A stretch of 64,000 nt of DNA from positions 1-64,000 of the IMG/VR virus record IMGVR_UViG_3300046820_002137, one strand, 5' to 3'. Shown piece by piece: positions 1,270 to 53,900 of the stretch (the first letter of the stretch is position 1; the number at the start of each line of letters is the position of its first letter). The DNA is from a virus. The notes under the pieces were generated by a model. That model was not told where the DNA came from and did no database searches. It worked only from the letters and a program-made list of their open reading frames with translations. The translations under genes and the position numbers were made by a program.

Positions 1270-1300
1270 AAAAAAAATGGAGATTATTCATCTCCATTTT
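1270..1300 (-). terminator. Intrinsic terminator overlapping the methyltransferase stop codon
   Basis: AAAATGGAGAT-tattc-ATCTCCATTTT inverted repeat followed by a U run on the minus strand. Confidence 0.6.
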
Positions 1301-2141
1301 CAAACTCTAAAACTTGTTGACTCTTTTGGTCAACGAAGGATTGTATCCTTTCTATAGAAATCTTAGTATAATTTTCAGAAAGTTCAATGCCAATCCATCT
1401 CCTGTCTAAAGTTTCCGCAGCTACACAACTTGTTCCGCTTCCATTGAATGGGTCTAGTATTATGTCATTCTTATATGACAATATCTTAATAGCCTTGGTT
1501 GGGATGTCCATTGAAAATGTCGCTTTGGTCATTGGTCTTGAGTCGTTTAGGTATTTCCATTGTCCAAACACAAGTTCCATGAATTCCTTTTTATCCTGTT
1601 CGGTATATAACATTTTTGTCTTACCTTCTTCAGTTGTAATTGGTTCTCCCTTCCATTGTGGTTCACCTTTAACTTTCTTGATATGGTTTTTTTTGTAAGC
1701 TAATATTACACATTCTTTTGGGTTATAGATATATGGACTTGATGGACTCATCCAACTACCCCAAGCGGTTGTCTTACTTCTATGAGGACTATCCTCCTCT
1801 AAGTCAACAATACCGAAGAATTTAAATCCAATTTGTTTCATCACCTGATAGACTTCAGATACAAAAAATATTCTACCACCCTTTTCTTGTCGGTTAATCT
1901 CATAAGGAATGTTCAAAGCAATTCTTCCGTCATCTTTTAAGACTTTATAGGCTTCTGTGAGCCAATTCTTGCTGAACTCAAGATACTCATTGATTTCCAT
2001 GTCATCATCATGAGTGTCATACTTAATGTTCACGCCATATGGAGGAGATGTCACAATCAAATCGACGAATGATTCGGGCATTTCTTTCATTACCTCGATA
2101 CAATCACCATTTATTACTTTATTTATATAGTTTTCAATCAT
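1284..2141 (-). CDS. DNA methyltransferase, N4-cytosine/N6-adenine beta class
   Basis: GDC, VTSPPY catalytic motif then ILDPFNGSGTS SAM-binding motif and WIGIE; likely start MIENYINK at 2141. Confidence 0.93.
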   Translation of the reverse strand: MIENYINKVINGDCIEVMKEMPESFVDLIVTSPPYGVNIKYDTHDDDMEINEYLEFSKNWLTEAYKVLKDDGRIALNIPYEINRQEKGGRIFFVSEVYQVMKQIGFKFFGIVDLEEDSPHRSKTTAWGSWMSPSSPYIYNPKECVILAYKKNHIKKVKGEPQWKGEPITTEEGKTKMLYTEQDKKEFMELVFGQWKYLNDSRPMTKATFSMDIPTKAIKILSYKNDIILDPFNGSGTSCVAAETLDRRWIGIELSENYTKISIERIQSFVDQKSQQVLEFENGDE

Positions 2142-2271
2142 CTTGTCTATTAATAATATTTTTTCTCCACCACTTTCCAAATTTACTTTTTGGTTTATAT
2201 GATATAAACCTATCAAAGTATAGAATACTAAAAACAAGTATAGTTGAAATTAAGTAGATTTTCCAAACCAT
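2134..2271 (-). CDS. Small membrane protein (45 aa)
   Basis: Manual translation MVWKIYLISTILVFSILYFDRFISYKPKSKFGKWWRKNIINRQDD; fills the gap and overlaps the MTase start. Confidence 0.6.
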   Translation of the reverse strand: MVWKIYLISTILVFSILYFDRFISYKPKSKFGKWWRKNIINRQDD

Positions 2272-3733: not shown

Positions 3734-5128
3734 TTACCCAATTCTCATTATATAGTAATGTTCATTATTGATATATTCCGTATCATAACTTCCGTCATAT
3801 GAAGCCAAAATCTGATACCCATCACTTTCTGCAAGTCCTTTGGCTAAAGAGTCCATATCAACATATTCACTAATATCCATACCGAATTCAGATAAAGAGC
3901 CTTTTGGGTCATTCATTTTATCTGATACCATTTCATCAATTTTTTCTTCAATCATATCCTCAGTTGGTTCCCCATTGGGTTGCATATTATCAATCTCCTC
4001 TTGTGAGCTATCAATATGACCTTTAATAATATCTATCTTTGACTGAATCTCATCATATCGTTTTCTGTACTCATCTGGGTCCTCAATCTCATCATTTAAG
4101 TTTTCTTGTTTTTGTTCTAATTTACTAATAACTCCTTCCGCCTTACTAATATATTCTTCGAGTTCCCGTTTTCTTTGTTCTTGTTCTTCTGAATCAGGTA
4201 ACTCACTTTCATCAAAATAAACGTCAATGTTACTCCTTACGTCATCATCATAAAAATCTTTGAAGAAATATTCAATTGCGTCGATATCTAAATGGTCGTC
4301 AATAAAATGGTCTCTTAAACCTTCAATACCGACCTCATCAAGGTAGTTTTTAGCGTACTCTAAGGCTGCTCTGTCCATTTCATATTCATCTCCAACTGCA
4401 AATTCTTGACCCTCTAAATCATCAATACCAATAACCTCAAACTGAGATAAACCGTAATAGCTATATTTCATTGATATTATACTATACACATCCGCCGAGT
4501 TTTGTTGTATTTCTTGAATTTTTTCCTCAACATCACTTATCTCATTCGCCAAGTCATCATCCTGACCTTCGGTTTCATTATATCTATTGGTTAAATCCTC
4601 CAAATCCGCTTTCAATCCCTCTAATTCTCCCTGTTTTTCACCTGTTATAGGTTTGATATCTCCATTACGGACCAAATGTTTAAATAAAGCTTGAGCCTTT
4701 AATCCATCATCATCTTCATTATCAATATCCCACTCATTATTTCTTCTTCTCTCATCGGCTTGATTTAGTTTTTCTTGTCGAATGGCCTCACGTCTTCTTC
4801 TATCTATCGGAGTTCCTCCATCCCATATGTAACCATTAACTTTAACGTCAGATAAATCATTAATTTTTGTGTTTCTAATATCTAATCTACCCTCAACATA
4901 TTTAACATTACCCAAAGAATCTGTTGGTGTGTCTGATAGGTCCAAATCACCGGTAATCCATATTGGTTTTCCTCCAAACATTTTGAGTTTACTAACACCT
5001 TTGCCATGATAACTTCCGAACTTCATTAGTTCTGTAAACTCCTCAGGTGAAATTTTGTAAAACTCTTCCTCACTTTGTTCTACCAATATATTCTTTACAG
5101 TATTTCTTAAACTTAGACTCTTTGACAT
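3734..5128 (-). CDS. Acidic coiled-coil protein with short LRR/beta-helix-like repeats; probable virion protein
   Basis: GDLDLSDT..SLGNVKYVEGRLDIRNTKI repeats; N-terminal ILVEQ motif; TATTTAT upstream; likely start MSKSLS at 5128. Confidence 0.7.
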   Translation of the reverse strand: MSKSLSLRNTVKNILVEQSEEEFYKISPEEFTELMKFGSYHGKGVSKLKMFGGKPIWITGDLDLSDTPTDSLGNVKYVEGRLDIRNTKINDLSDVKVNGYIWDGGTPIDRRRREAIRQEKLNQADERRRNNEWDIDNEDDDGLKAQALFKHLVRNGDIKPITGEKQGELEGLKADLEDLTNRYNETEGQDDDLANEISDVEEKIQEIQQNSADVYSIISMKYSYYGLSQFEVIGIDDLEGQEFAVGDEYEMDRAALEYAKNYLDEVGIEGLRDHFIDDHLDIDAIEYFFKDFYDDDVRSNIDVYFDESELPDSEEQEQRKRELEEYISKAEGVISKLEQKQENLNDEIEDPDEYRKRYDEIQSKIDIIKGHIDSSQEEIDNMQPNGEPTEDMIEEKIDEMVSDKMNDPKGSLSEFGMDISEYVDMDSLAKGLAESDGYQILASYDGSYDTEYINNEHYYIMRIG

Positions 5129-5219
5129 AATCATAAATATTTGTAAATTCAAATAAAATATTTACAATATACTCCAAATTTAGATATTTATGGTAAATAA
5201 ACGTTTAAAATAAAAAGAT

Positions 5220-5390
5220 ATGGGATGCGGGTGTAAAAACAAAGGTAATCAGGCTCAAGCTCAGCCTCAACCTCAGCCATTGAACCAGATTCAACCTCAG
5301 GCTCAACCACAACAAGCTCCACAACAGAGTAACAATCAAAACATTCAAGAGTCGATTAAAAAAGTTGTGGAAAAATATTACAGAAAATAA
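5220..5390 (+). CDS. Small MGCGC-motif, Gln/Pro-rich protein (56 aa)
   Basis: Manual translation MGCGCKNKGNQAQAQPQPQPLNQIQPQAQPQQAPQQSNNQNIQESIKKVVEKYYRK; TATTTAT upstream, terminator downstream. Confidence 0.8.
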   Translation: MGCGCKNKGNQAQAQPQPQPLNQIQPQAQPQQAPQQSNNQNIQESIKKVVEKYYRK

Positions 5391-5408: not shown

Positions 5409-5434
5409 AAAGGGGGTTTATAACCCCTTTTTTT
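5409..5434 (+). terminator. Intrinsic terminator
   Basis: GGGGTT-tat-AACCCC followed by a T run. Confidence 0.7.
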
Positions 5435-5490
5435 ATTTAAAGTATTTAGGATTTGAATTTTTTTGTTTATCTATTTCAAAAACATTTTAT

Positions 5491-6315
5491 ATGAAGTACA
5501 TTAATCCAAAATCGAGAAGAGGTATTGTGAATAAGTTTGCGGATTTTATTCTTTGTGAGATTCAAAAAGAAAAAAAATACAAAACAATAATTGAGATTTC
5601 AGACTTTAAAACCTTTTTGGTTGTTGCAGGAAAAACTGAGTCCAAAACTATTTTGGATTTAACTGAAATCAAGGAAAGATTTTATGAAGAAAATAAAGAG
5701 TTGATGGTTGACTTAAATTACGAAAGACTAAATGTAATTGATATAATTGAGTATGATAATATAGGATTTACTGGCACGTTTGAGTCTTATTTTGAATTTC
5801 ATAATACAATTCATCCTTATTTTCATGAAAAGGTGCTAAACTATGTATATAATCACATTGATGTTCAATATAATAGTTTAGACTTTAAAAAGGAATTAAT
5901 CTTTGATTTAGATTATGACCATTTGAATGAACCAAATTCTATGTTCAGTAGAAATTATATTTGCGTGTCGTCGGAATTCCCATATGGTTATAGTTTAGAT
6001 AATGGTAGAGCCCATCTTTATTACTCAGAATATATTTGTAACCAATTATTCTCATCCATTAAAACGGACAAAATAACTTTTAAAATTTCAGACAATAAAG
6101 ATGATAATGGTGATTTAGATATTCAAATTATCTCTAATTCACCTTATCTAACTGAAAAAATTAAATCTATGGTTTTGGATGTTTTTGATTTTAACATACA
6201 AAGATTCATTAATACCACTCTCAAGAAATATGATTTATCAAAAGAGATTGATAGTCAGTTAGAAACCAAACCATGGTTAAAAAAGGACCTAATTAACGAA
6301 TTATTTATTATCTAA
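5491..6315 (+). CDS. Divergent, probably inactive S-adenosylmethionine synthetase (MetK)-like protein
   Basis: Start MKYINPK at 5491; N- and C-terminal segments align by eye to MetK; catalytic motifs GHPDK, GAGDQG and GGGAFSGKD absent. Confidence 0.7.
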   Translation: [274 protein letters not shown]

Positions 6316-7117: not shown

Positions 7118-7433
7118 TTAGTATACTATTAGCAAATTCTTTTATTTGTGATTCACCTAAAACACCTACTCTTGTAGATGATTCTTTACCGTTAGAAAAT
7201 GATTTAGTTGTTGGAATACTTCTAACTCCGTATCTTTGTGCAATTTCCCTATTTGAATCAACGTTTATGGTATAAAGAGATACTCCAAAATTTTCGTTAC
7301 GAAGTGATTGAGATACTCTTTCAAATGTTGGTTTCATCATTTTGCATGGTCCACACCAAGGGGCCCAAAATTCAACGACCATCTTTTCGCCGTTCTTTAA
7401 TTTTTGTTCAAATTGTTCTGTTGTTAATTCCAT
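7110..7433 (-). CDS. trxA: Thioredoxin
   Basis: FWAPWCGPCK and GVRSIPT motifs. Confidence 0.95.
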   Translation of the reverse strand: MELTTEQFEQKLKNGEKMVVEFWAPWCGPCKMMKPTFERVSQSLRNENFGVSLYTINVDSNREIAQRYGVRSIPTTKSFSNGKESSTRVGVLGESQIKEFANSILNG

Positions 7434-7435
7434 CT

Positions 7436-7756
7436 TTATTTTGATTTATTTAAATTGTGTATTGTGAATTCAGACACACTTTGTCTATCAATCGTGGTCA
7501 TGAATGTCACATCGGTTATAGGAGATTCTTCATCTCTTAGAATATAAATATAGATACCCATCGCATCATATTCAACTAATTTCTCTTTTATAAACACACC
7601 GTTATGTCTAAAAACGGATGAAAACCATATTGTTCTTGATTTAGAAGTTAGTTTTTCAATACGTTCATCGTTATCCATCTTTATTTGAATAAATGATGGT
7701 TCATAACCAAATGTGGCTTTGAACTTGTCGGTGCAAAATTTAGGTACTTCACTCAT
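7436..7756 (-). CDS. Hypothetical protein
   Basis: 106 aa ORF, tight packing with neighbours. Confidence 0.7.
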   Translation of the reverse strand: MSEVPKFCTDKFKATFGYEPSFIQIKMDNDERIEKLTSKSRTIWFSSVFRHNGVFIKEKLVEYDAMGIYIYILRDEESPITDVTFMTTIDRQSVSEFTIHNLNKSK

Positions 7757-7757
7757 A

Positions 7758-9488
7758 TTAGAAATTTAAATCATCATCCAAAATAGTAACTATGTCATTA
7801 CCTGCATAATCAAAATTAGTTATGTTTTTGTCCTCCCAAATTAAATCCTGAGAAGCTTTCAATAAATTAAAAATGTTTGTAGGTCTACCAGGTCTAGTTG
7901 AAATTCCAATAGGTTCTTCAAATTTAGAATCGGATTTAAATTCTTTACTACCAATTTTACATACAATTTTGGGTAACTCAAATAAATTATACACCAATGA
8001 ATTGTTCATTCTCTCATCCAAAATTTCAAGAGCAAAATTCCAATCAAGTCCAGGGTCTTGATTAAATCTACCTCTTGTTTGAACTCTATCAATTCTCATA
8101 GAATGTCCCATACTTATTCTATATTCAACCGTCAATCTTTCTTTAGATTCTTTATCACCCTTTCTAAGTGAAACAATTAATGCAGAAGCTCTTTGAATAT
8201 ATCCTTTAACACAATTTGACTGAACAAACGATTCTAAATTATACTCTTTGGATGTTTTTAAAATCTCAGGATAATATGTTTCAGTTTCATACTTAATCTC
8301 ATTTGAGATATAGTCAACAAACCTGTCTCCATAAATTCGAGTGTAAGTTCCTTTTGTATAATACTGATTCGACTCAGTTAGATTAAGGTGTTCTTCTCTG
8401 AATTCATCATAGGTAGTTGAGTTCCATCTAACGTGTTCAAACCTTCTAATATTTCTAATGAATCTAAAGTGGTCAATATATGTATGAACATCAACTTCGC
8501 CCTTAGCAACTAATTTGAATATTTCAAATATATTATTTCTCTCTTTCTTTGAGGTTATTATGGAGAAGTCCGCGTAGAATTCACTATTACAAGTGGATTC
8601 AAACATACTAATGATAACATCGTCACTCTGACCTAAGATATAATCTTTCCCAAAGAAATTTATGGCGGACCTAAATAAATTTGGATTGAAGTTGTCTACT
8701 TTATGTAAAATTCTTTTTACCTTGTCCCCCGTCAATCCATTTAAAGCCATTATGGAATCCAAATATTTTGGCCCATTCTTCTTATAATCTTTAGTTTTTG
8801 GTTGTGGGTACATACAACTAAACACGGCCCAGTTGTCACAAAGTTTGATTCCCTTTTTTGTCAGTATGGTTTTATAAATTGTTTGACTTGATATTTTATT
8901 GGTGTGATACTGTACACCAGGAATATTTGCCAAAAATTCTTTGACCGCATTGTGACCAAATATGTTATTTATTTTTCTTTCGGGGCGGTCCTCAAAAACA
9001 TGATTGTACCACAAATTTATTGTAATAATTGTGTCTGTGATAATATCTCTATCGAAAGTATGAATCTTAACATGTTTTAAAGCCTTTCGTTTCTTATGAA
9101 AATTAATTATTTTACCAACGTATAAACAATTTCGTTTAACATTATAAGAAACATAATGACAAGTGGTACTAACACGATAAAAAACTTCACCAACTCTTTT
9201 GGTTCGTGAATACATAAAGTATTTGAGGGTGACTTTATCCTCATTCTTAACTACAAAAATACTCAACCTTTTATGTGTTAAGGTACACAAGGTATTCTTT
9301 TTGTTCAATTCGAAATATTCTTTGGTAAGATTTGTGGACTTTTCAGCCCACGATGTTCTTAACCTAGTGTTTCCAAATATATCAAAAACATCAATCTCAT
9401 TTTCTTTTTCTCTATGTTCCAATACATTAAAGTCAAAGAAATCAATTGTTTGAAATGTCTCAAATTTTTGGCTATATACTTCTTGCAT
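7758..9488 (-). CDS. Protein with C-terminal PcfJ-like domain
   Basis: ESFVQSNCVKGY...IVSLR...RLTVEY...VQTRGRFN pattern. Confidence 0.7.
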   Translation of the reverse strand: MQEVYSQKFETFQTIDFFDFNVLEHREKENEIDVFDIFGNTRLRTSWAEKSTNLTKEYFELNKKNTLCTLTHKRLSIFVVKNEDKVTLKYFMYSRTKRVGEVFYRVSTTCHYVSYNVKRNCLYVGKIINFHKKRKALKHVKIHTFDRDIITDTIITINLWYNHVFEDRPERKINNIFGHNAVKEFLANIPGVQYHTNKISSQTIYKTILTKKGIKLCDNWAVFSCMYPQPKTKDYKKNGPKYLDSIMALNGLTGDKVKRILHKVDNFNPNLFRSAINFFGKDYILGQSDDVIISMFESTCNSEFYADFSIITSKKERNNIFEIFKLVAKGEVDVHTYIDHFRFIRNIRRFEHVRWNSTTYDEFREEHLNLTESNQYYTKGTYTRIYGDRFVDYISNEIKYETETYYPEILKTSKEYNLESFVQSNCVKGYIQRASALIVSLRKGDKESKERLTVEYRISMGHSMRIDRVQTRGRFNQDPGLDWNFALEILDERMNNSLVYNLFELPKIVCKIGSKEFKSDSKFEEPIGISTRPGRPTNIFNLLKASQDLIWEDKNITNFDYAGNDIVTILDDDLNF

Positions 9489-10642: not shown

Positions 10643-12007
10643 TTAAGTAAGATAGTAAAATCCTTCTCCTTCGTCAGACAATACCTCTTTAAGCGCCGGT
10701 GGTATCTCAACATTTGGATTTGCTCCTTTAAGATTGAGTAGGGCCAAATTAGGTATGTCCTTGATTGATTCTGGCAAAGATACTAAATCTTTGTTATTTG
10801 CCAAATTCAAAAACTTCAAATTTTTCAAATCACCCAAATTTTCAGGTAATGTTCTTACAATATTTGACATTAGTAAAGCATCAAGGTTCTTAAATCTTGT
10901 AATACTTTCTGGTACGTCAAGTGCAATATTTTCTTTTGATTTATTTGTAACAATAAGATGTTCAATTGTATCAGGTAAACTTTCAAATAGTTCTTCAAAT
11001 CCATAAAGAGCAATAAACTTACCGGCAGAACTATCAGGATAATTAACCTCAACTTTATTACCACCCTTACTCACCAATCCTTTTGCAAACTCAGGTTTGA
11101 AGAACTCTTTAAGTTCTGACATTGGTCCGTTAAGATATTCAACAAGATTGATTTGTCTATCGTGACGGTCCATAAATTGACTTGATGGGAAGTGGAACTG
11201 AAATCTTTCAACAGGAAGTCCTGATTTTTTACCTCTTTGACCTTTATCGTCATTAGGTAATACAACATACAATGGGCCATCCTTAATATAAGTGTTGAAG
11301 TAATTCAAACCAGGTGATGACGTACACCATCTTGATTCCCCTTCCTCAGGAAGGTAATAACCTCCATAGAAACAAGCAGCGTCTTTACCCAACGCTCCTT
11401 GGTCTTGGATTTTAACAAGAGTCCATGTATTACCTCTGAATATAATTTCACCTCCTGGATGTTCGTATGTCTTACTCGCCTCTTCTTTTTCAGATTTACT
11501 AGCCTTAGTTTTTTGTAGACTCAAATCTTTTGTTAACTCATAAACATCATCTGGAGTTAACTTATTAATATCCCTTTTATCTTGGGGGAATTGATTTTTA
11601 AACCTTTCGTATTTTTTAAGGTCATCAGTAACTTTAAACAAGTCCTCCAAGAATACACGTTGCCATTCCTTAACCGCAGATTTAACCTCAGGGCTATTTG
11701 GGTCAGTGATACCACTTTGTAGTTCAATTTTTGGATTCAAAAAGTTCTTTAACAACCATTGACTGTATTTTCCGACTTTAACATTCTCCATTTTTTCAGG
11801 AGTCAATGTGTCTATATCCTCACCTTGTGGTATTCTTGTAGTTGGGTCAGCTAAGATAATGGCCTTCAAAGTTTCAAAGTCCATTAATCCTTTCGCCTTT
11901 CTACCCTCACCCTCAGTACCTTTTGAAGGTTTAACCATTTTGTCATACAGAACTTGGAAACGTGATTGTTCCAAAATCAAATTTGTTAAAAGTTTTGTAA
12001 ATCTCAT
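10643..12007 (-). CDS. Protein with RWCT-motif domain and C-terminal leucine-rich repeats; probable virion protein
   Basis: SRWCTSSPGLNYFNTY...QFHF; LPENLGDLKNLKFLNLANNKDLVSLPESI LRRs; LILEQ motif; TATTTAT upstream. Confidence 0.75.
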   Translation of the reverse strand: MRFTKLLTNLILEQSRFQVLYDKMVKPSKGTEGEGRKAKGLMDFETLKAIILADPTTRIPQGEDIDTLTPEKMENVKVGKYSQWLLKNFLNPKIELQSGITDPNSPEVKSAVKEWQRVFLEDLFKVTDDLKKYERFKNQFPQDKRDINKLTPDDVYELTKDLSLQKTKASKSEKEEASKTYEHPGGEIIFRGNTWTLVKIQDQGALGKDAACFYGGYYLPEEGESRWCTSSPGLNYFNTYIKDGPLYVVLPNDDKGQRGKKSGLPVERFQFHFPSSQFMDRHDRQINLVEYLNGPMSELKEFFKPEFAKGLVSKGGNKVEVNYPDSSAGKFIALYGFEELFESLPDTIEHLIVTNKSKENIALDVPESITRFKNLDALLMSNIVRTLPENLGDLKNLKFLNLANNKDLVSLPESIKDIPNLALLNLKGANPNVEIPPALKEVLSDEGEGFYYLT

Positions 12008-12040
12008 TTGAATGTTTTTACTTAATAAATATCAAATAAA

Positions 12041-12883
12041 TTAAAAATAATTCATAATAAGTAGTTCCTCTCCCATATTTTGGGTCTGTCCTTTCTTAGC
12101 CGCGGCGGCCTTAGCGAACTCTTTCTTTTCCCACCTATATTGGTCTTCAGGAAACCACTCGTGCAAAAGTACGAAATCATAGTAAGATAACGAAAACTTT
12201 CCTTCAATAGTTTTCAACACATTTGCCAGTCTCTCGTGGTCGTCTCGGTCAAAATCGTGGTTTGAGTAGTAATTCTCGGTTTTCCAATACGGGGGGTCAA
12301 GATAAAAATAAGTTGTCGGACTATCAAATTCTTTTATAACATTTTCAAAGTCACCCAATCTAAAATGACTAATCTTATTGAAGTGTTCTACCCACTCAGG
12401 TTTTGATAGTTTGTCTCTGAATGTCAAATACTTTGACTTATACTTACCCTTCAAATCAATAAAAGAACTAGTCTCAGGTTTAGACCCACTGAATACTTGC
12501 GTTAGAACATAAGCATATTTTGCGGCAACATCGTAGTCAGGGTAGTTTATTGTAAATCCATCACCAAATATTTCTTTTTGGAATGTATTAAACTGTTCTC
12601 GGTAAATTGGTGGTGTCACTTCCTCTCCTTGTTGTTGACATGGTATTCTATTTACAGCAGATAACAAAACACCAGGGTTCTGTAAGCACATAAACAAGTT
12701 ATAGTTTAATGGATTGAAGTCGTTATAAACAACCCTTTTTAGTTTGGGGTATTGTTTCAAATCCATATTAAAGAAACACCAGAACATTCCTCCGAATGTT
12801 TCCACGTATGTTTCCATGTCAGTTGGGTAATATGGGACTATCCATTTACCTATTTTTGATTTTCCTCCTATGTAGCTTAGCAT
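12041..12883 (-). CDS. Dam-family (D12 class) DNA adenine methyltransferase
   Basis: YIGGKSK, YVETFGG, VYNDFN, FYLDPPY, LSY, ELLIMNY motifs; specificity not determinable. Confidence 0.92.
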   Translation of the reverse strand: MLSYIGGKSKIGKWIVPYYPTDMETYVETFGGMFWCFFNMDLKQYPKLKRVVYNDFNPLNYNLFMCLQNPGVLLSAVNRIPCQQQGEEVTPPIYREQFNTFQKEIFGDGFTINYPDYDVAAKYAYVLTQVFSGSKPETSSFIDLKGKYKSKYLTFRDKLSKPEWVEHFNKISHFRLGDFENVIKEFDSPTTYFYLDPPYWKTENYYSNHDFDRDDHERLANVLKTIEGKFSLSYYDFVLLHEWFPEDQYRWEKKEFAKAAAAKKGQTQNMGEELLIMNYF

Positions 12884-12889
12884 GATATA

Positions 12890-14146
12890 TTATTGTATTG
12901 TAAGGGCGTATTCAGAGTCCTTATTATTAATGTTTATTTTTTGTACTAATCTTACAACATGTCCTGAGAACTGAACGTTATTTTCACCACTTGCCAATTT
13001 AAACGAACTAACAACATTTTTTATTGTTGATTTTTGTTCAGCGCTTAATTCATCAATAATAAGAAGAACTCTAAGATTGGTTTTGAATGACTCTATTAAT
13101 AATTTTTCAATCTCTCTTTCGATTGAACGTTCTTTAATTTCGGGGTAAATTTCTTTTATCCAACTTATAAACTTAGTTGATTGGATTTCATTGTTATTTA
13201 TATAGTTTATTATTTTATCGACCCAACTTTCAACTGTTTTCATTCTTGTTTGTTCATCAGTTATAATACTAAATGCTGATGCAAATCTCATTAATTGTGG
13301 TATAACAACACTATTTAGATATGTGGATTTGTCAATTTCTCTGTGTTTTTTTTCACCGTAACATTCGTATTCAATTAGATTAATTCTAAATGGATTCTTT
13401 AATTTTTTATCAAATTCAATTAAGATTCCGTCAGGTATTGTTCTAATTCCTTGTACGTTATTTCCGTCAACTTTAAATCCTTTCGTTTTGAATAATCTAT
13501 TTTCAGGAATTAGTAATGTTTTTGTTTCAGGAAATTGAGGAAATAACATATAAAAATTTTCATTAACTAATGGTTCAAGTCCTTTAATTTTATCAGTTTC
13601 GTTTGAAAACTGAACCGTTTGAAAAGTACCCATGATATCAACTTTAACATTAGGTATTTCTTTTTCCAAATTTATGAGTTCTTTTTCATCTTCTATTGTA
13701 ATTTCCCCATATTCTTCATCACTATTCTCAGTAACATAATCATTTTCAAAATTAAATATTCTTTCTGTTTTATTGTTTGAAAATTCTTGTTCTAAAATTT
13801 TAATTGCTTCTTCATCATTAATTGGTTTTGCCCCTTGTATATATTTCATCGCCCAATATTTACCTCCAGCCTCTGAGAGTATTGATATATCAAATGGTTC
13901 ACAAAACTCAATTTGTTTTATAGTAAACACATTTACATATCTCTCAGCATCTTTCCAAGGTTTATAATCTGTTGGCTCATCTAAAATAAATCTTGCCCCG
14001 CACAAACTTTTTTTACCGATTTTAACAGCTAAATAAACTAAATCACCTGATTGGGCACCTCTGTTTGTAAAACCTGATACTTTATCGGTTAAACATAGAT
14101 TATAATTTTCAATTAAAACAGAACAGTGAGAAATTCTTACTTTCAT
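12890..14146 (-). CDS. EVE/PUA-domain + PD-(D/E)XK nuclease fusion, putative modification-dependent endonuclease
   Basis: N-terminal ENYNLC...GF...GDLVYL...PWKDAERY...W...IQG pattern; acidic linker; IPDGIL...LIEYE and IPQL nuclease motifs. Confidence 0.65.
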   Translation of the reverse strand: MKVRISHCSVLIENYNLCLTDKVSGFTNRGAQSGDLVYLAVKIGKKSLCGARFILDEPTDYKPWKDAERYVNVFTIKQIEFCEPFDISILSEAGGKYWAMKYIQGAKPINDEEAIKILEQEFSNNKTERIFNFENDYVTENSDEEYGEITIEDEKELINLEKEIPNVKVDIMGTFQTVQFSNETDKIKGLEPLVNENFYMLFPQFPETKTLLIPENRLFKTKGFKVDGNNVQGIRTIPDGILIEFDKKLKNPFRINLIEYECYGEKKHREIDKSTYLNSVVIPQLMRFASAFSIITDEQTRMKTVESWVDKIINYINNNEIQSTKFISWIKEIYPEIKERSIEREIEKLLIESFKTNLRVLLIIDELSAEQKSTIKNVVSSFKLASGENNVQFSGHVVRLVQKININNKDSEYALTIQ

Positions 14147-14246
14147 TTTACATTTTTTTTTAATAATAGTAAAGAAATCTCAAAAAAGCAAATAAAATAT
14201 TTATAGATTTGAAAATAACCCTTATATTTTATTTAAAATTAATAAT

Positions 14247-14417
14247 ATGGAAAACACAGTAATAGAATCTCAACCAAAAAAATCTTGTAAAAAATGTAAC
14301 TCAGCTGAGACTTTAAAAAAAGTTCCAAAAAGTATGATAGTTTTTACAATATACTTTTTAATGGCGGCGGTTTACGGAACTATAGAAATTGTAAAAGATA
14401 TCATATCTCTCTTCTAA
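14247..14417 (+). CDS. Small membrane protein with CxxC (56 aa)
   Basis: Manual translation MENTVIESQPKKSCKKCNSAETLKKVPKSMIVFTIYFLMAAVYGTIEIVKDIISLF. Confidence 0.65.
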   Translation: MENTVIESQPKKSCKKCNSAETLKKVPKSMIVFTIYFLMAAVYGTIEIVKDIISLF

Positions 14418-15330
14418 ACTTAACATAAAGTCTTACATAAAGGTCCCCTTTACCTCCAATCTTGAACCCTTTAGATTTCACTCTAAGGGGTTTTGACGTA
14501 TCAAACTCAATAGGGAAATTAACTCTAAGTTCCCCATCAGGATGAGGTACGCTAATAGAATTTTTACTTAAGTCTTCTAATGTTAGAAATGAGTTATATA
14601 TTAAATCATTACCTGATTTTTCAAATGTACCATCATTTAATAAGTTTATTTTTAGTATAAGATTACCATAAACCCCGTTGAATGAGTCACCCATTCTATC
14701 AACTCTCAGCATTTGGCCAGTTTCTGAACCATGAGGGATTACAAATGTCATAGTTTCCATTTTTGGTATTGTTCCGACCCCAGAACAAACACCACATTTA
14801 GTTTTTAAAGTAGAACCCTGTCCTCCGCATAAATCACAACTTTGTTGTACCATTTGTATGAACATACCGTTCCCCATTCGTACGGTTATAAAACCTTGTC
14901 CATTACATTTTCTACATGAAATTCTATCCCCTCCAGTTCCATTACAACTTTCACAGTTATGATTTCTTGTGTAGTTTATTGTTTTTTCTGACCCCATATA
15001 TGAATCAAAAATTGTTATGTCCACATTTATTACTTTTTCAGGGACATTATTCTTTTTACGTCGTCCTCCAAATTGTGAAAAGAAGTCTTCAAAAGGATTA
15101 AATCCCCCTCCCATTCCGCCAAATGGATTATTTTTTTCAGCATCATACTGTTTACGTTTTGATTCGTCACCGATTGTATCATAAGCTTCAGATATTTTTT
15201 TAAATACCTGTTCATCACCACCCTTATCAGGATGATGTTCAACAGCCTTTTTTCTGTAAGCTTTTTTAATTTCATCTTGTGATGCGGTTTCTGAAACCCC
15301 TAAAATGTCATAATAACTCTCAGCACTCAT
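14401..15330 (-). CDS. dnaJ: DnaJ co-chaperone
   Basis: J domain with HPD, G/F linker, four CxxCxGxG repeats, C-terminal domain. Confidence 0.95.
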   Translation of the reverse strand: MSAESYYDILGVSETASQDEIKKAYRKKAVEHHPDKGGDEQVFKKISEAYDTIGDESKRKQYDAEKNNPFGGMGGGFNPFEDFFSQFGGRRKKNNVPEKVINVDITIFDSYMGSEKTINYTRNHNCESCNGTGGDRISCRKCNGQGFITVRMGNGMFIQMVQQSCDLCGGQGSTLKTKCGVCSGVGTIPKMETMTFVIPHGSETGQMLRVDRMGDSFNGVYGNLILKINLLNDGTFEKSGNDLIYNSFLTLEDLSKNSISVPHPDGELRVNFPIEFDTSKPLRVKSKGFKIGGKGDLYVRLYVKFRREI

Positions 15331-15371
15331 AATCAATATTTAATATTATTCAATAATTCTTATTATTTGGT

Positions 15372-16013
15372 ATGGACTTCAATTTCCAAATTGTTTTATT
15401 CAAAAATAAAGTAAAAAAGAAAATAATCAATAAGTTTAAAACTTATAAAAAAACAAATAATACTTTCAAAACTCTCATTGAGGAGTCCAACAACGTTATT
15501 TTTCCTGTAAAGTATGAGAACGGTAACCCATCTAATTATGAACTAGCCATATTAGAAAAAAAGTCTAATAAAAAAGAAAAAGTATTTATCAAAGATGAAT
15601 TTGGTAGACAAATAAAGGTTGATTTGGACGACGATGAATTTACAATTAGTAAAATTGTTTCATTCAATGTTGAAGAAGAATTTTTGGATTATCAAACTAA
15701 AAAGAAAATAGATTCTAAGAATTTCATTAAGAAATACCTTTCATCCGCCGGTATTAAAATGATATCAAAATTAAATAACAAAATTGTGGTTCAGATTGAT
15801 GAGTCTTACAATTTGTTCACCTTTAAAAACACTTCGGACTCAGATAGATTTTTAGATGATTTGGGTAATCATTTACGTAAAACAAACAAAAACGATTGTA
15901 TATTAGTAAAAGATTATTCAACAATACACAGGAAATATTTATATGATATTTTGGTTAACCAAGGCTTCCCGAGGCATTATCTTCAGAGACATTCAACAAC
16001 TCATCCAAAATAA
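15372..16013 (+). CDS. Basic hypothetical protein
   Basis: 213 aa Lys-rich ORF divergent from dnaJ. Confidence 0.7.
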   Translation: MDFNFQIVLFKNKVKKKIINKFKTYKKTNNTFKTLIEESNNVIFPVKYENGNPSNYELAILEKKSNKKEKVFIKDEFGRQIKVDLDDDEFTISKIVSFNVEEEFLDYQTKKKIDSKNFIKKYLSSAGIKMISKLNNKIVVQIDESYNLFTFKNTSDSDRFLDDLGNHLRKTNKNDCILVKDYSTIHRKYLYDILVNQGFPRHYLQRHSTTHPK

Positions 16014-44569: not shown

Positions 44570-47500
44570 TTAAGTAATTACTACTTGACAATAATTACAT
44601 CCACTAATTACCGCGTTCGCCAGTGTGTAATTTTCAACCGCCTTAGAACTGTAGCAATAGTTAGAGATATTTTTAACTATCGTGGTAGTAGTTTCTACAT
44701 TAATAGAATCACCTGAAATCATGTAGACAGTGTTCCAATTCTCAGTAGAAGCCGTAATGTATTTAGAATTACTTTGGCAGCCTGCGGCAAAATTAGTTCC
44801 AGTAGATGTACTTGAACCGCTTGAACTTATCGCTTGTGGAACGTTGTTCAATTTTAATATGGAGTTAGTTGTAAGTGTGGATGCGGTTTGAGATGGCGAT
44901 GTATCAAACGTATTGGTATGTAAAACATCAAATATAATAGTCGTACCTGTTGGTAAGGACGGTGTGACGTTTACTATTGTATTATATTGTTTTGTAAGTG
45001 TGGTTGTGGTATTCGAAACTATAGATTGACTAGTTGTTAAATATAAATTGTATACGGTTATGTTTTGAGCAGAGGTTAATGTAATTTTTTGTGTAGTTGT
45101 TGCACCACTTAAGTCTTTACCTATCACAATATAATCACCACCTTTTAGTCCGTTAAAAATTGGGTAACTCTTATAAGTTGTTCCATTGTCTATTGAATAC
45201 TGATATGGGGGAGTTCCTCCTGTTACATTAAACACGATGGAACCATTAGATTCTTGTGTTGGGTTATTTTGAGATATTTTCATTCCTAATGTTGGATTAT
45301 ATGTACATAATCCTTGTGAAATTGTAAGGTCATACGATGACCCTGATATTGTATAAATACCAAATGGACTAACCGGATTGTGAGTCGCCTCAGATAAGAA
45401 CCCTGTCGAACCCGTTACCCCACTAGTCTCCCATTTTGTGGTATCGGTGTTAAAATATAATACCCAATCATCCCCTGTCTCACCACATGGTAATTGACCA
45501 GTCCAACTTGCTTGACCATTTATTTCACCATTATAAGTTAATTCAAAAATGTCCTCTCCACATTCAGACGGATTATCGAATGATGCACAAACATCACCAC
45601 TATAACATAAACCTTCGAAAACTCTAGCCGTTATTGTTGAATAGGTTGACCCTATAACCCCCCAACCCGTTACTGGTGGCGACTTAGGACTATAGTTTAA
45701 TATTTTATATGATTCCCCATAAAATCCTTGGATAAACCAATAAGGTTGTTTACTATCATTAACCCAATAAATTGAATAATCGCCACTGTTATCAACCCAA
45801 CTTGGTTTACCATTAATTAATCTTTGGTTATCATTAAATTGATATTGATTTGGTGTTCCATCAATTGTTATTGTAACACATAATTTTGGTTCGGGTGATA
45901 ATGATGTTGGCGAAATGGATAAAGTTGATGTGAAATTTTGAGGTCCTGAAACAACACAGACTGTAACTGCCGTAAAATCATAGTAATAGTCAGTAGTTGT
46001 TGCGGTGTATTCTCCAGGTAATAATTGGTATAAATTTGGTCCACTTTGCCCATTACTCCATGTTGTAAGATATGGTGGGGTTCCTCCAGTTATTGTTAAT
46101 GTTGCAGTTCCATCACCAACTACAGATTGTGAAGAAGTTGTAGAACATATCACCCCCATGGGATATAAAACAATCGGAGCACATTCATTACCTAATAAGT
46201 AATAAGTACCACATTGATTAGTTCCACTTACAGATGGATATAATGTTGTAGGGTCAGGGTCAGGTGGGTCACAACCTTGTAAAACGCTAGTAACTGTAGT
46301 TGCCGTACACGCGGAACAATTAATAAAATAATTAGACTGAAATAGATTAACACTAGCATCATAAATGATTGATGATGGAGGTATAGCGGTTCCATATACC
46401 TCGCAGCACCCTGTAAAATGACGCATTTCTAAATAATACGACTCACCAGGTATTGGTATTTTATTTTGTAAGGATTGAGCTACAGGTTGAACTCCAGAAC
46501 TTAATGTAAAATTATTTGTTGGGAAATTTTGTACCCCGAAAAATGAACTTGGGTTTCCCGAATCATCATCACAAATTTTAAAATAAACAGGAGGGTTTGA
46601 ACCATAGGAAGTACTAAACCAATCACTAGCACTTATACAAGTAGTTGGAGTTGAGTCCTGCCATTCATAAACAGTACCAACCGGATAAGTTGAATTTATA
46701 TTTAATATACTTAATAAGGTATTAGTTGACACTTCCCTACATTCCCACCAAAATTCAATATCATTCCAAAATATAATACCGTTTATATTATTATTACCGT
46801 TTTTTAATGTAAATTCAAAGGCATTTCTACCTCCAATTATACCCGCATCTGAAGCGTTAACAATTCCACATTGTGAATACACAACTAATAATGTATTAGA
46901 CGCAGGTGGTGTTGGTCCACCTCCAGTTGGAGTTGGGGTCTGTGGTGGTGTTGGTGTTATTGGAGGTGTTGACCCTCCTCCTCCCCCTGTTGGTGGTGTT
47001 ATTGTTGGAGTTGGTGTTGGGGTACCACCTGGTGGTACCGCCCCCATTGAATTTAATAGGGGTTCTCTAGCTCCTCCAGGTGCGAAAAGAGCTAAAGACC
47101 TTGATACTTGCCCCGGTGAAAACATAAACATACAAGCACTACGTGTATAGTCCATGTAATTCATCGTCATTTCAATTGGATTACCAGGGCAACTAGAATA
47201 GTGAGGATAAGCTGGGCATCCTGAGTTTGGTCCATCGTGTTCTGGTGTATCACTAACCCCATCACTAGCTCCACACCCACTACCTCCCCATATATGTTTT
47301 AAATTTAACCAGTGTCCTATTTCATGTACAGCAATCCTACCAATGCCGTATATAGAGTTAGACGGGTTTGGATTCGATATACTACCAACTGAAAAATATG
47401 ATATAACTATACCGTCACGTTCAGGTGACCCTCCCGGATAAGGGGCGTAACCACCTAAACCAGGTTCTAAAGCACACACCCAAATATTTAAATAACTGTC

Positions 47501-47965
47501 TCTATCCCAAGCATCAAATCCACCATCTGAAAAAAATCTAGGGTCATTTGGACCGTCAAAATAATCCAAATTAGTAGTTCTTCTCTGTATACCAGTTGTA
47601 GGGTCACCATTTGGGGCTCTTGACGCAATAGTAAATTGTATACCCATGTTACCCGCCGGTTGGAATATTGGTGGTACGTCAACTATATCAGGGTTTGTTG
47701 CACTAAAATCTAAATTTAATTGGTCTATTTGTGCTTGTAATAAATCATAGGAAACATTTTGTTCCGTTGTTTTATATATAACATGGAAAACTACAGGTAT
47801 TGTAATTATCTGAGTTGAAGTGTAGGAAGGATTAATTGCTAAAAATGCCGTTGTGAAATTTTCAACCGCTGTTTTTCCAGACGCGTAACTAGGGTCAACT
47901 AAGTTTAAATAATCCTCTTGAGCGTCTAATCCACAAGGTAAAGATATTTCAGTAAAACTACTCAT
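44570..47965 (-). CDS. M43 (pappalysin/ulilysin-type) zinc metalloprotease fused to a SprB-repeat structural protein
   Basis: IPVVFHVI, QIDQLNLDF, YLNIWV, HEIGHWLNLKH, DTP, NYMDYT Met-turn; GGTPPY..WSNG repeats. Confidence 0.88.
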   Translation of the reverse strand: MSSFTEISLPCGLDAQEDYLNLVDPSYASGKTAVENFTTAFLAINPSYTSTQIITIPVVFHVIYKTTEQNVSYDLLQAQIDQLNLDFSATNPDIVDVPPIFQPAGNMGIQFTIASRAPNGDPTTGIQRRTTNLDYFDGPNDPRFFSDGGFDAWDRDSYLNIWVCALEPGLGGYAPYPGGSPERDGIVISYFSVGSISNPNPSNSIYGIGRIAVHEIGHWLNLKHIWGGSGCGASDGVSDTPEHDGPNSGCPAYPHYSSCPGNPIEMTMNYMDYTRSACMFMFSPGQVSRSLALFAPGGAREPLLNSMGAVPPGGTPTPTPTITPPTGGGGGSTPPITPTPPQTPTPTGGGPTPPASNTLLVVYSQCGIVNASDAGIIGGRNAFEFTLKNGNNNINGIIFWNDIEFWWECREVSTNTLLSILNINSTYPVGTVYEWQDSTPTTCISASDWFSTSYGSNPPVYFKICDDDSGNPSSFFGVQNFPTNNFTLSSGVQPVAQSLQNKIPIPGESYYLEMRHFTGCCEVYGTAIPPSSIIYDASVNLFQSNYFINCSACTATTVTSVLQGCDPPDPDPTTLYPSVSGTNQCGTYYLLGNECAPIVLYPMGVICSTTSSQSVVGDGTATLTITGGTPPYLTTWSNGQSGPNLYQLLPGEYTATTTDYYYDFTAVTVCVVSGPQNFTSTLSISPTSLSPEPKLCVTITIDGTPNQYQFNDNQRLINGKPSWVDNSGDYSIYWVNDSKQPYWFIQGFYGESYKILNYSPKSPPVTGWGVIGSTYSTITARVFEGLCYSGDVCASFDNPSECGEDIFELTYNGEINGQASWTGQLPCGETGDDWVLYFNTDTTKWETSGVTGSTGFLSEATHNPVSPFGIYTISGSSYDLTISQGLCTYNPTLGMKISQNNPTQESNGSIVFNVTGGTPPYQYSIDNGTTYKSYPIFNGLKGGDYIVIGKDLSGATTTQKITLTSAQNITVYNLYLTTSQSIVSNTTTTLTKQYNTIVNVTPSLPTGTTIIFDVLHTNTFDTSPSQTASTLTTNSILKLNNVPQAISSSGSSTSTGTNFAAGCQSNSKYITASTENWNTVYMISGDSINVETTTTIVKNISNYCYSSKAVENYTLANAVISGCNYCQVVIT

Positions 47966-48055
47966 TTAAATAAAATTACAATTTTCCATTTTTATAAAAC
48001 TTGAACTATAATTAATAATTATCAAAATATTCAAAACAACTACAAAAAAACTATT

Positions 48056-50905: not shown

Positions 50906-53900
50906 TAATAACACAAAATATTAAAGTTTATACCGACATCTATTTTGATGTTAACACCAACTTTGTCAGTAGAACAACTCATGTCATAAATAATGACATC
51001 ATCGTTAGTTCCAAAATAATAACCATATCCTAAAGAATCTAAATTATTTAATGCAATATTAAGTGCGAAGTCCCACTCTCCAGTTGACGGTGAACTGAGT
51101 GGCCCTGTGTAACCAACACCATTATACGCCGGGTAAGAGACTACTTGTGCATTGTCTATTTGTATGATAACAAACCATTCGGAAGTTAGTGTGTTTAATT
51201 CACAACTATTTAACGAATAACCTATAGAGTTCAAGTACGAATTTAAGACCGAACCTAAAATTCCATCAAAGTCGGGTACTTGTGGATTATTACTAAATGG
51301 ATATCTTTGGCAGGTTACTGACGTGACAGCACATCCAACATCATAAATGTCAGTAGTCACAATACAAGGTCTGCAAGGTACAGGTACTAATTGACAACCA
51401 GCTTGTCTTCTCCATACAAATTTTTGTCTGTGAAATATAGAATTTTCATATCTAACACCTGTGTTCCATATTGTTGTTGCGGGTATCATTTGTTCAACCA
51501 GTCTAATCCAATAATCTCCAAGTCCATTAACATATTCCATCATATTTTGATACTTGAAGTTATTATTTTCTAATCCGGCTAGTTTTTGAGATTCTATATA
51601 TTTCCAATAAATCGACTGTAATGTCGGATATGCACTTGTTTTACCGTCGGTTTGGTATTGTCTATTTCTAACATTAATCATGTTTTTCCAAAAAGTTTGG
51701 GCAAACTCGAAAAATGTTTTTCTTTTTGGTTGTGGGTTAATTTGAGTCCAATCAACTCCCCCACGATATGGGTATTCTATTCTTGGGTTTGGATTACATC
51801 TAGTTGGTCTTGGTTCAAATAAACCTCTATTAGGTATTGGATAATTATATTGGGTTGACATATACCATACATCATACACAATTCCTTGTGCTGGATTTAG
51901 AAATAAATCAACATTTTTAGCATTTAATACTAATCTATCATCTTGTGTAGTATATCTCGCGTTAAAAGAACTATCTCTATTAATTCTTAAACCTATTTCA
52001 TTATCAACCCAGCTTTTATTGTTATCAACAACTGGTGATAAATTAAAACCTAAATTCATATATGGGAAATCCCTGAATCTATTCAAATATATTTGTCCAT
52101 ACGTGAATGGTGCCAACTCTGTTTGATAATTAGGATTAGACCCTGTAAAAACACTATTAGTTAAATCAAAAATTTCAGGCGACCTATGTGAAGGGGTTGA
52201 TTCAAACCAACCAGCACCCATTTGGAAATAATAGTCCTCGGTACTATCGGGAGCTAACGGAAACCCTTCATCATCTACAGGGTAATTATCTCTTACCAAA
52301 TCAACATCTTGTATTGATAATGCGGTAGTAAACCCTGTATATTTTACTCCGAATATTGAGAAGACATTTGTAGGGTCTAATTGTGGAGCTTCGGTAACAT
52401 ATGTTCCTCCTGATATCTGAGCGTAATACGTATTAAATTGTGATATGTTTATTTTTTGGTCAACCAAATAAATAAACTCATTAAACTCCACCAAAGCATC
52501 GGGAGCACCAATAAGTCTCATTAATATCTCAATTGACTTTCTTGTTCCCTTAGATTTAAACAAATAAGCAGAATTTAAAATTAAATTTCTATAATATTGA
52601 TAATTTAATTCATCTGGTGTTTTTTCAACACCTACACCTGAAAAAGAAGACTCGTTACTATTTTTTTCTCCAAAAACCGAACCTAAAAAGTCCTCATTAC
52701 TTATTGGTGATATGTTGGTTGTCCAACCTAATGTTTGAGCTAAATTTTTTAAAAGTTTTGATGGGATATCGTCTCCAACATTATAATTAACAGAATTCAT
52801 AAAGGCAAGAGCGTTTATGAATTTATTAACTTCATCAAAACTTCTACCATAAATCTGAAGAACTTTCTCCATTTTTTGACCTATGGTATCGAAATCTTTA
52901 TAAGAACCAGTAGTTAAGAATCTTGAAATTAAATTAGTCCTAAATGAATCAAAATATTCACTTATTTGGTTTAACTTTATTAAATATTGTTCGAATCCAT
53001 TTGACATAATATCAATGTTCCAAACACCATTCATTGGCCACGTTACACTCTCGGTAGAAATATAAAAACTTCCATCATCCGCCTCTTTAGGTACTCTAAA
53101 ATTAGAAGTATATATAGGGGTTCCATTTCTGTTAAGTAAAAAGTTTTCAACCTCGTCCAAATCATCACTATAAACTTTATTAACCTCCATATCATTTGGA
53201 CGTATAATTAAAGTGTCATAAGTTGTGGATGAACCTGAAAATGGATTACCGTTAACTGTTATAGTTAAAGTTCCTGTTGTTAAAGAATTAGTTGGTATTA
53301 TTTTTTTTAAAGAATAACCCGTTCCATTGTAGTACAAAGAATACTTCGAATATTCCGTTGTCATATTTCTTAACTCAGAAACCTCAATTTCTCTTAATTC
53401 AAGATTTCTAGTAGATGCCGTTGTAAAATCAATTCCAAATGGATTTCTGATTCTACTTATTGTTAAATTAAAAGTTGTTAAATCTTGAACAACGTCATAA
53501 ATAATATTTTGGGCCGTTGGACCATCTTTATAATTTAAACCAATTCTATTAGATTCAATACCCGCAGGGAAATAACTAATTATTTTGGTTACCGATGATG
53601 ATATCCTTTTCGCCATCGAACCAAACTGAACAAAATTAGTTACTTCAGATAAATCAAAATTAGGATATACTTTAAAATTATTTTCAAAAATAATTTTGGA
53701 TTGTTCTATCGAATAAACACCTAGATTCTCTAAATTAATTGGTTCTGAAAATACTCCAGTATAAAAAGTTCTATCAGATTTTTCAGTGATAGAGCTTGTA
53801 AAATTAAAATTCCCTTGCGTAAGTCCTCCCCCTTGGACTAGTTGAAATCCAACTAAATCATCCGAAAACGTTCCCGCTCCTGATGCCGGTGTAGGTGGGC

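Follow-up and report, generated by a model that had tools for sequence, protein, structure and literature searches.

A putative modified-base reader and nuclease gene inserted in a variable cargo slot beside a conserved phage DNA methylase

Are a predicted nuclease gene and the DNA methylase gene directly behind it in a phage genome a functional pair, or neighbours by accident? The question is raised by the first 64 kb of the 120,573-base linear IMG/VR virus record IMGVR_UViG_3300046820_002137; this stretch, analysed at its full 64,000 bases, is called the window here. The two genes, X418 and a D12-class DNA methyltransferase (the methylase), lie on the same strand with only 6 nt (12884-12889) from the X418 stop codon to the methylase ATG, as a first-pass annotation had noted. 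That annotation preferred a scheme in which the methylase marks non-self DNA and the nuclease cuts it, and mentioned a recent unrelated insertion of the nuclease as another possibility. Insertion is strongly supported by our results, and X418 is very probably an insertion and no partner of the methylase. We consider it reasonably probable that X418 is a stand-alone modification-dependent nuclease carried as strain-specific cargo, so that the two genes are neighbours by an accident of insertion and not a co-evolved pair.

The methylase is a stable, conserved gene of its phage group. IMG/VR contains 543 relatives of it, of which the top 80, at 75-97% identity, define the related phage loci used for comparison (L077-L156). 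Gene order around the methylase is conserved among them (DnaJ, methylase, leucine-rich repeat (LRR) protein, o96, DUF932), and the ratio of nonsynonymous to synonymous substitution rates (dN/dS) of the methylase is 0.030 and 0.036 against L078 and L088. X418 is absent from all 80 loci, although they carry the methylase and keep this synteny. An alignment (A3) locates the boundaries precisely: the ~90 nt found upstream of X418 abut the methylase ATG in L078 and L088, and X418 with a few flanking bases (~1.28 kb) lies between that upstream region and the methylase ATG. At the same insertion point, L084 has a different insert of ~2.4 kb. Co-occurrence of the two genes in related phages, which the first-pass annotation had named as a check of its proposal, was not found in either direction: there is no X418 in the 80 methylase loci and no methylase of the phage type in 67 bacterial loci with an X418 homologue (tblastn, 0 matches).

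The position upstream of the methylase is a hypervariable cargo hot spot. In 29 of the 80 related loci it holds nothing, and DnaJ lies 198-375 nt upstream. A LAGLIDADG endonuclease gene occupies it in L127-L131, L139 and L118 (three of these were compared with Pfam, and each matched). L077, L086, L087 and L101 have an open reading frame (ORF) of ~810 amino acids with an NPPY motif there, which is split in L084; when the copies of L077, L084, L086 and L101 were compared with Pfam, only that of L086 gave a match, a weak and sub-threshold one to Eco57I. Other related loci hold other genes, such as a TonB-plug-like gene or small ORFs of no known function.

Forms with and without the insert occur side by side in nature. 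In two other freshwater runs (X3 and X7), contigs pass directly from position 12883 to 14162 and from 12885 to 14175, leaving out 1278 and 1289 bases; runs X3, X4 and X7 give no or short cover over most of X418, and only the two joining contigs were used. The probable source run yielded a 537-base contig at depth 11 that leaves the window at 12894, compared with depth 28 for the X418 contig. At the loose end of the shorter contig, 20 letters coincide by eye with the end of the L084-type insert, and at least two forms of the slot are present in the probable source sample.

This coexistence, together with the LAGLIDADG genes at the same insertion point, would suit a selfish homing-type nuclease that spreads by cutting X418-less phage genomes in co-infection. 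We regard that explanation as very unlikely, given that the X418 family is overwhelmingly bacterial and chromosomal, in varied contexts, and very rare in phages. We identified only nine matches in IMG/VR, all distant (41-51%), and tblastn of X418 against 50,697 GenBank phage records gave no match; blastn of window positions 11000-15500 against GenBank phages gave just three matches of ~100 nt at 74%. We know of no homing endonuclease family with the X418 architecture.

Homologues of X418 number at least 450. A genome scan that yielded the 67 bacterial loci placed the family in Bacteroidota, Cyanobacteria, Bacillota, Ignavibacteria, Planctomycetes and other phyla. We examined the nearest ORFs, two to either flank, which gave 227 ORFs from 64 loci; the other three loci are short and have no neighbour ORF. 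A DNA methylase catalytic domain was found within two ORFs in seven loci (L007, L012, L016, L022, L023, L045 and L046) and was absent in 57 of the 64; a TaqI_C fragment neighbours the homologue in L053. Frequent neighbours are McrBC (with an EVE domain in the McrB subunit), GmrSD, type ISP and type I restriction genes, YhcG, Uma2, HNH nucleases, AbiEii-like ATPases and toxin-antitoxin pairs; in the remaining loci the neighbours are housekeeping genes. The bacterial homologues are thus mostly solitary and often located in defence islands, a setting that fits a type IV (modification-dependent) enzyme. ORFs for modification-dependent nucleases with a PUA-type sensor are described as "rarely nearby methyltransferase ORFs" (PMC6765204), and the few methylase neighbours of the X418 homologues follow the same pattern.

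An ordinary type II restriction-modification system, with X418 cleaving a site when unmodified and its neighbour methylating that site for protection, would explain why the genes are adjacent, on one strand and 6 nt apart. There is like adjacency to a Dam-family or N6_N4 methylase in L045, L022 and L023 and to a D12-like one in L074, and a D12 methylase occurs somewhere in 14 of 24 X418-bearing genomes. Such a system is nevertheless very unlikely here. The two genes are not co-inherited, as the phage and bacterial loci both indicate, empty-site contigs occur in the two other runs, and most of the bacterial loci have no methylase close by. The genome G002, a single contig of 5.1 Mb with an X418 copy 79% identical to that of the phage, lacks any D12 methylase. 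A PUA-type reader, moreover, is a hallmark of modification-dependent and not of modification-blocked enzymes (PMC6765204).

We also considered whether X418 excludes D12 methylases, and dropped the idea, as 14 of the 24 carriers, against 5 of 14 control genomes, have one above the cut-off. All three cyanobacterial genomes tested that have an X418 homologue encode Dam-family methylases (260-273 bits). The family neither needs nor excludes D12 methylases.

Two side observations concern the surroundings of particular homologues. In L006, a 5.1-Mb Chitinophagaceae contig, the homologue (79% identical) lies between two group II intron reverse-transcriptase genes with identical scores (3985-5253 and 7363-8631), an arrangement that suggests a mobile or recently rearranged patch. 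In the cyanobacterial loci L018 and L019, the X418 homologue lies 3 nt downstream of an ORF of 193 amino acids (5417-5998 and 83-664) that amounts to the N-terminal domain of an MmeI-type enzyme and nothing more, as though X418 had displaced a type IIL restriction gene or broken it in two.

The N-terminal domain of X418 is predicted to have a PUA-superfamily fold that is closer to ASCH and YTH than to EVE. The AlphaFold model, made with a 38-sequence alignment, has a mean predicted local distance difference test score (pLDDT) of 81.7. Foldseek matches of the reader (E 8e-5 to 1e-2) were led by PH1033 at 8e-5, with YTH domains from 1.6e-3, and included MJECL36, ZmASCH and the N-domain of McrB from Thermococcus gammatolerans (TgMcrB). 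Using VIA-align, ZmASCH (5guq) scored Z 11.9 (118 aligned residues, root-mean-square deviation 2.5), seven YTH entries scored Z 11.9-10.7 (7ng2 at 11.9) and PH1033 (1wmm) Z 11.7. Z was 9.4 for VcaM4I (6yex), over residues 1-128, and 8.7 for TgMcrB (6p0g); other EVE proteins reached 8.3, 7.5 and 7.1, below ASCH and YTH at 11-12. Residues F26, Y38, W64, D66, Y70, F85, W98 and K107 of the reader are invariant in the 38 sequences.

Sequence comparisons did not recover this domain. X418 had no family over threshold in Pfam, PHROG, NCBIfam or PADLOC, and none of the 38 aligned family members matched Pfam EVE, ASCH, YTH or PUA at E<=1; the only result of that Pfam scan was a sub-threshold DUF7669 match in 16 of the 38. 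A phmmer and profile search against PDB sequences returned chance-level rows only. The EVE-like reader of the first-pass annotation is therefore right as to superfamily by predicted fold, with ASCH and YTH as the nearest subtypes.

Among the best fold matches are YTH domains that bind RNA and an ASCH protein that has RNase activity. A PUA-Cal-HAD defence module is reported to bind N6-methyl-dAMP (m6-dAMP), and the Metis system to sense m6dAMP. With the frequent location of X418 homologues in defence islands, these points could be taken to mean that the PUA-like domain responds to a free modified nucleotide (such as m6-dAMP set free when a genome is degraded) or to a modified base in RNA and thereby activates the nuclease, for abortive defence or interference. 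This ligand-gated or RNA-directed action is unlikely in our judgement. The tested PD-(D/E)XK partners of PUA-family sensors act on DNA (PMC6765204), and we identified no sequence sign of oligomer or filament formation in X418.

The C-terminal 255 residues of X418, folded alone, gave a pLDDT of 85. The top VIA-align rows for the nuclease domain (Z 6-8.1, which the tool rates as middling) are nearly all PD-(D/E)XK nucleases, among them Upx (Z 8.1), FokI (7.7), NucS (7.6), HamA (7.5), XisH (7.3) and BstEII (7.2). Residues P238-D239, E259-Y-E261, K273 and Q284 are invariant in the 38 sequences. Because the list of structure matches is homogeneous and these residues are invariant, a PD-(D/E)XK-type active site is likely, and K273 may supply the catalytic lysine. 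The nuclease class given in the first-pass annotation is favoured by the structure list and the invariant D, E and K residues; its middling scores, an ExE motif and the lack of a profile match tell the other way.

A profile of the nuclease domain, searched against 1.84 billion representative proteins, found 95 proteins. All full-length matches share a single layout, with the domain starting around residue 160; X418 therefore represents a compact family and no shuffled module. Pfam comparison of ten relatives of variant length from that search gave TPR in one and no domain in the other nine.

Fusions of a PUA-superfamily sensor to an HNH or PD-(D/E)XK nuclease are established modification-dependent enzymes (PMC6765204). 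Like the EVE-HNH enzymes VcaM4I and TspA15I, X418 is a single chain with a predicted N-terminal PUA-superfamily reader and a predicted C-terminal nuclease, an arrangement that needs no cognate methylase. Unlike them, it has a PD-(D/E)XK-like instead of an HNH nuclease and a reader nearer ASCH and YTH, and X418 shows no detectable sequence similarity to this group. VcaM4I is reported to act on 5-methylcytosine and 5-hydroxymethylcytosine. The predicted layout of a reader with a PD-(D/E)XK nuclease resembles that of MspJI, AspBHI and YenY4I, in which the reader is an SRA or PUA domain; YenY4I is described as PUA-DUF3427-PD-(D/E)XK (PMC6765204). X418 differs from these in reader subtype and has neither an SRA nor a DUF3427 domain, and the VIA-align score of its nuclease domain against AspBHI (4oc8) is Z 4.7, a weak similarity.

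A virus-borne modification-dependent nuclease is known in HhiV4I, a PUA-wH-HNH enzyme; HhiV4I and DpnI both depend on G6mATC (PMC11037411). These two are precedents for the reading of adenine methylation. Their winged helix (wH) reads G6mATC, whereas the X418 model has no winged helix, and X418 homologues coexist with Dam-family methylases. TgMcrB has a YTH-like N-domain and so provides a PUA-superfamily reader in a type IV system (Z 8.7, as given above), working with a GTPase motor and McrC where X418 is a single chain. A role as sensors of N6-methyladenine (6mA) in DNA has been predicted for prokaryotic YTH and ASCH domains, which for ASCH is "not confirmed by experimental data" (PMC11037411).

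In the mechanism that we propose for X418, the reader would flip a modified base into its pocket and thereby license the nuclease to cut nearby. Protection by a methylase would then be unnecessary, and X418 would only need to leave alone the marks on its carrier's own genome, which in this phage would be the products of two methylases. After capture as cargo, it would be expressed from the upstream region of the methylase. We infer the target of X418 and its benefit to the phage; a likely use would be to attack host or rival-phage DNA that bears other modifications.

Modification-dependent DNA cleavage by X418 has, in our estimate, slightly better than even chances. What the analysis itself shows is how the folds are assigned, that X418 is inserted and that its homologues mostly occur alone; the type IV-like character given to X418 by the first-pass annotation is supported by the predicted architecture and the gene context. 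Several points weigh against a stand-alone modification-dependent nuclease. Modification dependence is inferred from predicted architecture and gene context. The modelled nuclease fold scores are middling at best (Z 8.1), the nuclease domain alone had no Foldseek match at E<=1e-3, the catalytic motif is D...ExE instead of the canonical D...ExK, and neither X418 domain is recognised by any sequence profile. A minority of homologues do lie beside methylases: a Dam-family methylase (152 bits) lies 296 nt downstream on the same strand in Bacillus sp. L045, an N6_N4 methylase directly upstream in L022 and L023, a D12-like methylase upstream in the viral locus L074, and another ~1.9 kb downstream in L005. 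A functional link to methylases is thus possible in some lineages. The completeness of the phage record is 41% (CheckV), and further partner genes could sit off-contig. As to origin, transfer may have run in either direction: the closest bacterial copies (73-81% amino acid and ~76% nucleotide identity) are low in GC (0.29-0.34) within flanks of GC 0.41-0.49, and synonymous sites are near saturation.

The sequence in front of X418 bears on how the cargo is expressed. The first-pass annotation gave X418 a promoter of its own, and a sigma-70-like match does lie just upstream of its ATG (14173-14145, minus strand). Such matches number 16 in positions 11900-14500, against 13.2 +/- 3.9 in shuffles, and are therefore not above chance. 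Because the ~90 nt involved are conserved directly before the methylase in relatives, the supposed promoter region is the ancestral upstream region of the methylase. We did not identify intrinsic terminators in 11900-14500, which includes the gap between the two genes. X418 and the methylase are probably co-transcribed, X418 having taken over the upstream region of the methylase.

The methylase was called a Dam-family adenine methyltransferase in the first-pass annotation, which holds only at the level of the D12 class. It matches Pfam PF02086 (D12 class) with 66.3 bits against a cut-off of 22 (E 4.7e-18, profile positions 1-241 of 253), and in PHROGs it matches phrog_56. With the NCBIfam Dam-family model TIGR00571 it scored 55.4 bits, below the family threshold of 114.85 (in the same comparison, cyanobacterial D12 enzymes had 260-273 bits), and the E. 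coli Dam equivalog model gave no match. Among all PDB sequences the only match was 7M6B (E 6.7e-6), where the LDPPY of the methylase aligns with the DPPY motif; at E<=1 there was no match to a Dam structure. According to its depositors, 7M6B is M.CbeI, an N4-cytosine methyltransferase of the alpha class (PMC8616854). The phage methylase shares the D12/alpha-class fold and the DPPY motif with M.CbeI and Dam. With a Dam score below the cut-off and an N4-cytosine enzyme as relative, neither GATC nor adenine specificity can be assumed.

GATC is missing from the window, as the first-pass annotation suspected: the 64,000 bases contain none, whereas shuffles contain 165 +/- 12. Nor does it occur anywhere in the 120,573-base record, where about 315-355 would be expected, and GATC is by far the most depleted 4-mer in both window and record. 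Among the 80 related loci, GATC numbers 0-1 in 62, over lengths of up to 10.8 kb (expected 14-34, ~31 per full-length locus), and 8-42 in the other 18, which have orthologous methylases at 75-78% identity. Since the 62 relatives without X418 are equally GATC-free, GATC loss and retention of the methylase are independent of X418, and the loss predates its arrival.

GATC scarcity extends to bacteria. An Emticicia metagenome-assembled genome (MAG; order Cytophagales) and two Saprospiraceae MAGs (G004, G021 and G022) are nearly GATC-free on independent contigs, and the two Saprospiraceae MAGs still have D12 methylase genes (150-197 bits). From the order to which the Emticicia MAG belongs, 30 genomes were drawn evenly, and eight of them have 0-1 GATC at rpoB, where 12-17 are expected (L187-L216). 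Six of the seven closest bacterial X418 copies are themselves GATC-free. A tie between X418 and GATC-free genomes was considered and dropped, as the eight GATC-poor genomes of that order were drawn regardless of X418. As a possible cause of the loss, we identified neither DpnII (PF04556) nor MutH/Sau3AI (PF02976) in five incomplete genomes (the phage record, the Emticicia MAG, the two Saprospiraceae MAGs and one more). A literature search, with most subscription journals outside its reach, found no report of GATC-free Cytophagales or their phages.

These results bear directly on the scheme in which GATC sites in the DNA of the host or of competitors are methylated by the phage enzyme and X418 recognises and cuts the marked DNA, the phage being immune for lack of the site. 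Several findings would suit it: the absence of GATC from 120.6 kb, the strong purifying selection on the methylase in GATC-free phages (dN/dS 0.03), the position of both genes, 6 nt apart, behind one upstream region, and a reader at least as near the m6A-reading YTH fold as EVE. An Atlas row also links the nuclease part to RAMA-domain clusters (TM-score 0.39/0.52), which is a lead only. X418 is missing, however, from every related locus, GATC-free ones included; the orthologous methylases in the 18 other loci coexist with normal GATC density; and the methylase stays far below the Dam-family cut-off (55 against 115 bits), with an N4-cytosine enzyme as its sole relative among PDB sequences. X418 homologues also coexist with Dam-family methylases in the three cyanobacterial carriers, and D12 methylases are found in a larger share of the carriers than of the controls. 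If GATC-poor bacteria are the hosts, a GATC methylase would find no sites to mark, and 8 of the 30 genomes from the likely host order are nearly GATC-free. The weak Dam score, the N4-cytosine relative and the distribution of GATC and X418 leave this proposal of the first-pass annotation with only a slender chance.

An equally slight chance attaches to a broader version, in which the methylase marks a motif absent from the phage (and perhaps from a GATC-free host), so that the mark would reach co-infecting foreign DNA alone, and the newly acquired X418 reads it with a YTH/ASCH-like pocket and destroys that DNA, or, in a milder form, in which X418 is the first PUA-superfamily nuclease to read N6-methyladenine or N4-methylcytosine in DNA. 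If true, this would be a two-gene mark-then-cut weapon with self defined by site absence.

Table 1. Features of the window discussed in the text, with positions counted from the first base of the window.
Feature	Positions	Strand	Description
X418	12890..14146	-	418 amino acids; predicted PUA-superfamily reader and PD-(D/E)XK-like nuclease; strain-specific cargo gene
X418 residues ~1-130	13757..14146	-	ASCH/YTH/EVE-like (PUA superfamily) putative modified-base reader
X418 residues ~131-170	13637..13756	-	acidic, poorly conserved linker; pLDDT 44-67 in blocks 131-180; gap-rich alignment columns
X418 residues ~171-418	12890..13636	-	predicted PD-(D/E)XK-like nuclease core with helical insertion
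D12-class DNA methyltransferase	12041..12883	-	280 amino acids; DPPY motif; conserved in the phage group
Inserted cassette	12884..14174	-	~1.28 kb; X418 and few flanking bases, between conserved upstream region and methylase ATG
Conserved intergenic region	14147..14246	-	ancestral methylase upstream/promoter region, now before X418; near-identical in L078 and L084
Divergent ORF	14247..14417	+	56 amino acids; CxxC motif and hydrophobic tail; region conserved beside the slot in L078 and L084
Second DNA methyltransferase	1284-2237	-	N6_N4 (beta) class; PF01555, E 1.1e-35
Two SprB-repeat proteins	44570-50914	-	very large; host-surface-like

The record from which the window is taken encodes T4-type baseplate, sheath and tube proteins, gp32, ribonucleotide reductase, DnaB and a sigma factor. 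Terminal repeats and circularity were looked for in the record and neither was found. Because related contigs reach 294-322 kb, it is a fragment of a very large freshwater phage. Besides the D12-class methylase, the window encodes a second methyltransferase of another class (Table 1), and two or more kinds of methyl mark are probably present on the phage DNA. Elsewhere in the window are two phage proteins with SprB repeats (Table 1), one of which matches a type-9-secretion C-terminal sorting domain weakly and below threshold; the repeats and the sorting domain together point to a Bacteroidota host.

Fusions of PUA-type readers to nucleases and virus-borne modification-dependent nucleases were known already; new here are an undescribed family of that kind and its unusual carrier. 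To the modification-dependent class of PUA-reader nucleases, X418 adds a family of at least 450 members that has no Pfam model. Its predicted reader is ASCH/YTH-like and less like the cytosine-reading EVE and SRA domains, which makes the specificity worth measuring, and X418 is a candidate reagent for detecting a DNA modification. The scarcity of GATC in 62 of 80 phage loci and about a quarter of the sampled Cytophagales is a more surprising by-product, outside the main finding. For the biology of the phage group, the locus presents a giant freshwater phage that swaps nuclease-type cargo in one slot before a core methylase, and it cautions that a nuclease adjoining a methylase need not be a system.

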